A DNA stretch of 768 nt from the NCBI RefSeq assembly GCF_003334355.1, contig NZ_QOWP01000102.1; one strand, 5' to 3'. This DNA is from Escherichia coli (GTDB taxonomy: Bacteria > Pseudomonadota > Gammaproteobacteria > Enterobacterales > Enterobacteriaceae). Positions 2 through 768 of this stretch are shown in pieces. Position 1 is the first letter of the stretch. Every line of letters begins with the position of its first letter. Position numbers and translations under genes: made by a program. Under the pieces are notes generated by a model. It saw only the letters and a list, made by a program, of their open reading frames with translations. It did not search any database and was not told where the DNA came from.

Positions 2-24
2 GGTAATGACTCCAACTTACTGAT
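2..24. repeat. IS1 terminal inverted repeat, right end (IRR) relative to the transposase reading direction
   Basis: Plus strand 2-24 is ggtaatgactccaacttactgat. The reverse complement of 746-768 is GGTAATGCTGCCAACTTACTGAT. The two match at 20 of 23 positions, with mismatches clustered at positions 8-10 (ACT vs CTG). Confidence 0.85.
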
Positions 25-519
25 AGTGTTTTATGTTCAGATAATGCCCGATGACCTTGTCATGCAGCTCCACCGATTTTGAGAACGACAGTGACTTCCG
101 TCCCAGCCTTGCCAGATGTTGTCTCAGATTCAGATTATGTCGCTCAATGCGCTGAGTGTAACGCTTGCTGATAACGTGCAGCTTTCCCTTCAGGCGTGAT
201 TCATACAGCGGCCAGCCATCCGTCATCTATACTACGACCTCAAAGGCCGACAGCAGGCTCAGAAGACGCTCCAGTGTGGCCAGAGTGCGTTCACCGAAGA
301 CGTGGCCACAACCGTCCTCCGTATCCTGTCATACGCGTAAAACAGCCAGCGCTGACGTGATTTAGCACCGACGTAGCCCCAATGTTCGTCCATTTCAGCG
401 CAGACAATCACATCACTGCCCGGTTGTATGCGCGAGGTTACCGACTGCGGCCTGAGTTTTTTAAGTGACGTAAAACCGTGTTGAGGCCAACGCCCATAAT
501 GCGTGCACTGGCGCGACAT
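17..519 (-). pseudogene. insB: IS1 insB (InsB' transposase catalytic portion), disrupted by a frameshift and a premature stop
   Basis: Seen in sequence: two minus-strand ORF fragments, 259-519 (86 aa, [14 protein letters not shown]...[18 protein letters not shown]) and 17-226 (69 aa, [69 protein letters not shown]), lie in different frames. Canonical InsB is about 167 aa in one frame (from memory). The first fragment matches InsB up to ...TVVA and then diverges. My manual translation of the second fragment's frame upstream of 226 gives [30 protein letters not shown], which matches canonical InsB (...[31 protein letters not shown]...) except for a TAG at 227-229 where Trp is expected. This implies a 1-nt deletion near 303-306 (GCCAC where the prototype has GCGCAC) plus a nonsense codon. 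Confidence 0.85.
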
Positions 520-713
520 CCGACGCCATTCATGGCCATATCAATGATTTTCTGGTGCGTACCGGGCTGAGAGGCGGTGTAAGTGAACTGCAGTTGCCAT
601 GTTTTACGGCAATGAGAGCAGAGATAGCGCTGATGTCCGGCAGTGCTTTTGCCGTTACGCACCACGCCTTCAGTAGCGGAGCAGGAAGGACATCTGATGG
701 AAATGGAAGCCAC
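438..713 (-). CDS. insA: IS1 InsA: zinc-finger/helix-turn-helix DNA-binding protein, transposition inhibitor and N-terminal part of the InsAB' transposase
   Basis: Seen in sequence: the 91-aa [94 protein letters not shown] starts at GTG (rc of 711-713) and stops at TAA (rc of 438-440). It has a CxxC...CxxC zinc-finger-like motif (CPSC, CSHC). It ends in LKNSGRSR, encoded by TTA AAA AAC TCA..., as in canonical IS1 InsA. The length and near-identity to InsA are recalled from memory. An SD-like AAGGTG (rc of 719-724) sits 5 nt upstream of the GTG. Confidence 0.93.
454..464 (-). promoter_or_regulatory. Programmed -1 ribosomal frameshift site (A6C motif TTAAAAAACTC) joining the insA and insB' frames
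   Basis: Seen in sequence: the reverse complement of 454-464 is TTAAAAAACTC. In the insA frame it reads TTA AAA AAC (L K N), 6 codons before the insA stop. The insB' frame (the 259-519 ORF) reads LKKLRPQ across the same site. Established knowledge: IS1 makes the InsAB' transposase by a -1 frameshift at A AAA AAC. Confidence 0.85.
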
Positions 714-718
714 GCAAG

Positions 719-761
719 CACCTTAAAATCACCATCATACACTAAATCAGTAAGTTGGCAG
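719..761 (-). promoter_or_regulatory. Putative insA promoter and ribosome-binding site, partly within IRL
   Basis: Seen on the minus strand: candidate -35 CTGCCA (rc of 756-761), a 16-nt spacer, -10 TATGAT (rc of 734-739), and SD AAGGTG (rc of 719-724) 5 nt before the GTG start. Established knowledge: the IS1 insA promoter overlaps the left end and is repressed by InsA binding. The exact hexamers are my assignment, not verified. Confidence 0.4.
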
Positions 762-768
762 CATTACC
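746..768. repeat. IS1 terminal inverted repeat, left end (IRL), adjacent to the insA start
   Basis: The reverse complement of 746-768 is GGTAATGCTGCCAACTTACTGAT, the imperfect inverted partner of 2-24. It lies 33 nt upstream of the insA GTG start on the minus strand. Confidence 0.85.

Follow-up and report, generated by a model that had tools for sequence, protein, structure and literature searches.

The window, by which we mean the whole stretch of 768 nucleotides that was analysed, consists of one flanking base and a complete 767-bp copy of the insertion sequence IS1 on the minus strand. We are highly confident that this copy is a full-length, transposase-dead IS1 of the IS1F/IS1X2 subgroup, that it is fixed at one chromosomal site in a lineage of E. 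coli, and that its history and its capacity to be mobilised in trans are as proposed below. Decayed insertion sequences of this kind are ordinary, RefSeq already annotates this one as a pseudogene, and its amber has long been catalogued in K-12 as the insB7 defect. A second copy of the same allele in strain 720632 documents the movement of a dead IS1 copy in nature, which is only a mildly interesting addition and agrees with recent experiments.

Membership in the IS1 family was indicated by the length of about 768 bp and by imperfect terminal inverted repeats of about 23 bp, beginning GGTAATG/GGTGATG; the two repeats of the window, 23 nt each, are 87 % complementary. In addition, insA encodes a zinc-ribbon and helix-turn-helix protein (PF03811, 1.6e-19; PF12759, 1.6e-27; above the cutoff of NF050000), and the -1 frame is open across the A6C slippery motif, where insB' overlaps. 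The element belongs to the IS1F isoform, with 8 differences over 768 positions from K-12 IS1F and a TAG at the same codon, and the name given by PGAP to its sister copies is 'IS1-like element IS1F family'. The copies in L001, L002, L006, L007, L008 and L012 have exactly its sequence (100 % identity). The element length of 767 instead of 768 bp is an independent confirmation that a single base was lost. The features are listed in Table 1.

Table 1. Features of the IS1 copy in the 768-nt window (window coordinates).
Feature	Position	Strand	Remarks
IS1F-type IS1, complete	2..768	-	767 bp versus canonical 768; window base 1 is flank, brnT side
IRL, left terminal inverted repeat, GGTAATGCTGCCAACTTACTGAT	746..768	-	Same as IRL of intact IS1X2-type copies
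IRR, right terminal inverted repeat	2..24	-	Same as IRR of intact copies
insA, intact, 91 codons	438..713	-	GTG start 711-713, stop 438-440
A6C programmed -1 frameshift site, TTAAAAAAC, intact	456..464	-	Element coordinate 305, as in IS1A and IS1X2-type copies
insB' 5' part	259..519	-	Native frame to the deletion, then 14 out-of-frame codons, then TGA 259-261; NF033558 positions 75-130 only
1-nt deletion site	304..305	-	Coding GCGCAC to GC-CAC; specific to the mdtM|brnTA copy
Amber TAG for Trp163 (TGG) of InsAB'	227..229	-	Plus strand 'cta'; inherited from the IS1F lineage
insB' 3' remnant, 69 codons and stop, MTDGW...HYQ	17..226	-	TAG directly before; NF033558 positions 156-199

The lesions of insB' were defined by alignment to K-12 IS1A and to L003 and L004, two IS1X2-type elements of Shigella virulence plasmids that are intact. 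Compared with its nearest intact relative, the copy on the Shigella pINV (L004), the window showed only four differences, namely a 1-nt gap at 304/305, a G to A change at 228 that converts TGG to TAG, and silent changes at 233 and 591. The base lost from the coding strand is a G within GCGCAC, 26 codons upstream of the amber. IS1A has GCGCAC and TGG at the two lesion sites, as do the IS1X2-type copies, so neither lesion is shared by the intact isoforms, a check that the first-pass annotation had called for. That annotation had described insB' as split into two frames with a stop at 259-261, and open reading frames at 259-519 and 17-226 were indeed found; likewise, the 1-nt deletion that it had placed near 303-306 and the change from TGG to TAG at 227-229, just before MTDGW, were both evident in the alignment. 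Two details had to be corrected: translation gave 14 out-of-frame residues rather than 15, and the missing base did not come from a run of C.

The consequences for the transposase were examined with InsAB' products modelled after the programmed -1 frameshift. InsAB' comprises 232 amino acids in the intact isoforms versus 151 in the window, 137 of them native. The zinc ribbon and the helix-turn-helix were found in the truncated product, which covers only positions 1-37 of the 131 of Pfam DDE_Tnp_IS1 (PF03400), as expected from the earlier prediction that InsAB' ends at 259-261 and lacks its C-terminal part. All three fragments of the window remained below the cutoff of NF033558, the NCBIfam model for the IS1 transposase. 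The amber at Trp163 sits three codons before the aspartate of MTDGW (D166), and E191, in QRIERH, follows 24 residues beyond D166. We take these two residues to be the second aspartate and the glutamate of the IS1 catalytic triad, an assignment that is matched by the 24-residue spacing; the same D-to-E spacing was reportedly given for the triad by Ohta et al. in 2002. Either lesion alone removes D166 and E191, which are held by the 3' remnant and are now severed from the rest of the protein. Because the 151-aa product is devoid of both residues, the window copy is unable to catalyse its own transposition. An autonomous IS1 would have a complete DDE_Tnp_IS1 domain in an InsAB' of 232 amino acids without interruption; the window instead carries a frameshift and an amber and is flagged as a pseudogene by PGAP, the RefSeq label being 'IS1 family transposase, pseudogene: frameshifted; internal stop'.

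The other parts of the element were preserved. The window encodes the same InsA protein, residue for residue, as the intact Shigella copies. The insA product binds the ends of IS1 and acts as a repressor or inhibitor, and such a repressor could still be made from the window copy.

The frequency of the allele was determined with a 99-base probe spanning both lesions, for which any single substitution lowers the match to below 99 %. The probe found 313 E. coli records, of which at most five were stop-only alleles aligning over 99 of 100 positions, so that about 310 remained. Among complete E. coli genomes, about 6 % carry the double-lesion allele, and matches of 100 % over the full 768 bases were obtained in many independently sequenced E. 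coli chromosomes. Genomes with the window copy had a median of 11 places per genome that match IS1. All double-lesion copies examined were located at one locus with the order mdtM, IS1, brnT-brnA-yjiA. As a fixed allele at a fixed site, the window copy is a stable lineage marker.

A spread of the double-lesion copy onto plasmids was considered and rejected. The three 'plasmid' matches with 100 % identity all had the chromosomal context yjiM-mdtM-IS1-brnTA; they are chromosomal fragments or captures, not fresh insertions. One of them, the 22-kb 'plasmid' RCS63_p (NZ_LT985269.1, L007), carries the block yjiM-yjiN-mdtM-IS1-brnTA beside sul2, aph(3'')-Ib and aph(6)-Id. Either the block was captured from a chromosome or the record is misassembled.

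At this locus the left flank is colinear with K-12 up to the end of IS1, while homology on the right side resumes only at yjiA. IS1 and 793 bp with the toxin-antitoxin pair brnT/brnA, together about 1.6 kb (L001 5001-6560), stand in place of a 19-kb K-12 segment (L016 2791-21909) that contains rpnD', yjiR-yjiV, mcrBC, symER, hsdRMS and mrr. IS1 is situated exactly at the left breakpoint of this replacement of the restriction cluster. An 8- or 9-bp target duplication was not present at the mdtM|brnTA locus, where the flanks read ttaaaattt versus cgacagcga. The missing duplication is consistent with a subsequent rearrangement next to IS1, on the border of this variable restriction island.

The order in which the lesions arose was addressed with two further probes. 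With the stop repaired and the deletion kept, there was no exact match in 5,426 genomes, whereas the probe with the deletion repaired and the stop kept yielded 4-5 exact matches. Two of the stop-only copies, L009 and L011 (3548-4315 each), are 768 bp long, reside between mdtM and brnTA and bear the PGAP annotation 'programmed frameshift; internal stop'. Apart from the deletion and the silent change at 591, L011 has the sequence of the window. Judging from these sequences, the window allele descends directly from the stop-only form seen in L009 and L011. Given that deletion-only records were absent and that two of the 4-5 stop-only records come from the same locus, we concluded that the amber preceded the deletion, and the reverse order was rejected on the same counts. 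The idea that the amber is private to the window copy was also discarded, as it is common to K-12 IS1F and to other copies elsewhere. The same TAG and an identity of 99.0 % to K-12 IS1F therefore identify the window as an IS1F-type element with one extra private lesion. On this evidence the amber most probably predates the insertion at mdtM|brnTA, and only the deletion is locus-specific.

These data are consistent with the following course of events. The amber, Trp163 TGG to TAG, would have arisen in the IS1F lineage, either before the insertion or early in its life. At mdtM|brnTA one G would then have been dropped from GCGCAC. From there on, frameshifting at A6C would yield a protein of at most 151 amino acids with the zinc ribbon, the helix-turn-helix and the beginning of the catalytic domain. 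The copy would still produce InsA, and with its unchanged ends it can still be acted on by InsAB' from a different IS1, as is borne out by one natural event and by experiments on the sister copy, K-12 IS1F.

The amber itself was encountered well beyond this locus. In FDAARGOS_943 (NZ_CP065615.1, L010 3548-4315) an amber-only IS1F-type copy lies inside a DUF2254 gene and is bordered by an 8-bp duplication, CAAAGCAT; this genome has 27 places that match this IS1 subtype, with the amber or otherwise. Exact matches to the K-12-type amber allele came from about 27 plasmid records, some of them from Enterobacter and Klebsiella. Four of these plasmid copies were inspected and had unrelated contexts; they included a truncated copy and an IS1A/IS1F mosaic with a second stop, and none of the four had a target duplication. 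With the duplication absent and with mosaicism and truncation among them, they were only partly informative as candidates for clean independent insertions. The mosaic IS1 of pS65EC (NZ_CP036244.1, L018 3048-3815) is IS1A-like over the left ~320 bp and IS1F-like in its right part, and it carries the amber together with a second stop, which replaces a Q codon directly behind the slippery site. This mosaic shows that recombination between IS1 subtypes can move the amber allele. Overall, movement and recombination both seem to have spread it. InsAB' of IS1 is reputed to have a strong cis preference. We put forward only tentatively, and with somewhat less than even confidence, that IS1F-type elements form a natural non-autonomous IS1 lineage which, its transposase lost to an amber, persists and reaches new chromosomal and plasmid sites by means of the InsAB' of consensus IS1, the window copy being one member whose movement was captured in a clinical isolate.

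A natural event that would fit mobilisation in trans was seen in strain 720632 (GCF_003956345.1; NZ_CP025842.1, L012). This genome has two double-lesion copies, at 1760-2526 and 8797-9563, both with 100 % identity to the element of the window. The two copies face in opposite directions and enclose a 6.3-kb segment, mdtM..yjiJ', that is itself inverted, with yjiJ being split. The original flank on the brnT side was kept by one copy and the original flank on the mdtM side by the other, and both new junctions show the 9-bp sequence GTGGATTGC. When the outer flanks were joined with one 9-mer, the result was an intact yjiJ, for which more than 2,500 genomes gave a match of 100 %. The new junction was unique to this strain and is represented by a single assembly. 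Helper elements were sought in the same genome: the first 50-kb stretch that was searched contained none, and the second contained an intact IS1A-type copy about 26 kb away, annotated as non-pseudo with a programmed frameshift. The chromosome of 720632 has at least 40 IS1-matching pieces. Thus, in one event and one assembly, a transposase-dead copy was found at a fresh site with a target duplication and with an intact helper present.

The arrangement in 720632 fits the expected product of intramolecular replicative transposition. In principle a second identical copy might also have inserted and been followed by homologous inversion, with the same end result. Under either route the doubly defective element would itself have transposed, as far as this one assembly tells, and the event fits mobilisation in trans. 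A dead IS copy is consequently not inert and can seed inversions and gene disruptions, as with yjiJ in 720632. Elsewhere in the same record (L012 22301-23436) the IS1F copy beside fecI abuts a truncated fimH, while K-12 IS1F abuts yjhU. This suggests an IS1F-adjacent deletion in 720632 that removed the yjhU-fimH interval, including most of the type 1 fimbrial cluster.

Two papers from 2025 bear on the same question in K-12. IS1F showed no native movement when the consensus IS1 copies were deleted (PMC12428005). When InsAB' was provided in trans, IS1F was the source of 44 % of the insertions that derived from non-consensus elements (PMC12903888). The available text of both papers (PMC12428005, PMC12903888) attributes the immobility of IS1F only to amino-acid changes and calls the reason unknown. 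A nonsense codon or pseudogene status of IS1F was not mentioned in those parts of PMC12428005, and the stop codons that appear in those of PMC12903888 concern constructs only. Set against these parts of the two papers, the insB7 amber is a simpler explanation for the immobility of K-12 IS1F than amino-acid changes. Together, the broken InsAB', the natural event in 720632 and the K-12 IS1F experiments support the original proposal that the copy is non-autonomous.

Several other readings of the locus have to be weighed against a genuine, transposase-dead element. The deletion, the stop or both might be sequencing or assembly errors in a copy that is truly intact, a possibility already raised by the first-pass annotation, and single-base indels are common in some long-read assemblies. 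Yet the identical allele occurs at the same locus in the ~310 complete-genome records, which were produced by many laboratories on many platforms, the deletion affects GCGCAC and not a homopolymer, the stop-only alleles at this locus form a coherent evolutionary series with it, and the amber also occurs in the reference genome of K-12 MG1655, where the gene is curated as a pseudogene; the probability of an error is virtually nil. Recoding was considered as a means by which the copy might still be autonomous, either by amber read-through or by re-initiation at the adjacent ATG to give a split, active transposase. An ATG does follow the amber directly (TAG-ATG), and the occurrence of amber-bearing IS1F-type copies at many different sites might suggest movement. 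In the window, however, the deletion shifts the 3' remnant to another frame, and recoding at the amber is irrelevant because the TGA at 259-261 is met first. Moreover, even the stop-only K-12 IS1F was immobile once consensus IS1 copies were lacking (PMC12428005). Low-level amber read-through is possible in the stop-only relatives and would not rescue the frameshifted window copy, so that we regard autonomy by recoding as extremely improbable.

The copy might also have been kept for the benefit of the host, as a domesticated source of InsA that damps active IS1 or as a structural joint of the restriction or defence island. It speaks for such a use that insA, its GTG start and the promoter-bearing left end are unchanged, with an InsA identical to that of intact copies, that InsA7 of K-12 is annotated as 'IS1 repressor protein', and that the element marks the very breakpoint where brnTA replaces the 19-kb restriction cluster of K-12. 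However, the copy is only 4 bases away from its intact relatives; for this reason the intact insA is no evidence of selection, as a young pseudogene would keep it anyway, and the carriers hold many other InsA-making IS1 copies, given the median of 11 places per genome. A host function is therefore very unlikely, and we favor the view that the window contains a decayed IS1F-type copy which depends on InsAB' from elsewhere.

Among known systems the closest is K-12 IS1F (insA7 b4294 and the insB7 pseudogene b4576), which is the 'type IV' IS1 of Umeda and Ohtsubo (1991). It is 99.0 % identical to the window and shares the amber at Trp163, the inverted repeats and A6C. In contrast to the window, with its extra deletion and its position at mdtM/brnTA, K-12 IS1F is 768 bp long, has the amber only and lies beside fecI/yjhU. 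InsA7 of K-12 (L013 1473-2240) has two substitutions, CSHCRK to CSPCRK and PGTHQ to PGKHQ, that are absent from the window and from the intact IS1X2-type copies. InsA7 may be weakened by these substitutions, while the InsA of the window is unaltered.

The IS1X2-type elements of Shigella virulence plasmids (for example on NZ_MW396862.1 and NZ_CP026099.1) have the same InsA and the same ends as the window and an identity of 99.3-99.5 % over the whole element. Unlike the window, they are 768 bp long, have TGG and GCGCAC and an open InsAB' of 232 amino acids, and are annotated with a functional transposase. Consensus IS1 (K-12 IS1A/IS1E, alias IS1R) resembles the window in its 23-bp repeats, insA, A6C, overlapping insB' and length class, whereas IS1A is set apart by 72 nucleotide differences (~90.6 % identity). 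Consensus IS1 is autonomous and is the main source of IS1 transposition in K-12 (PMC12428005). Finally, MITE-like elements and mini-IS1 constructs (such as the miniIS1 of PMC12903888) have in common with the window that their ends are intact, that a working transposase is missing and that they depend on help in trans. Yet these elements are short and internally deleted, while the window copy is of full length and has retained an intact insA.
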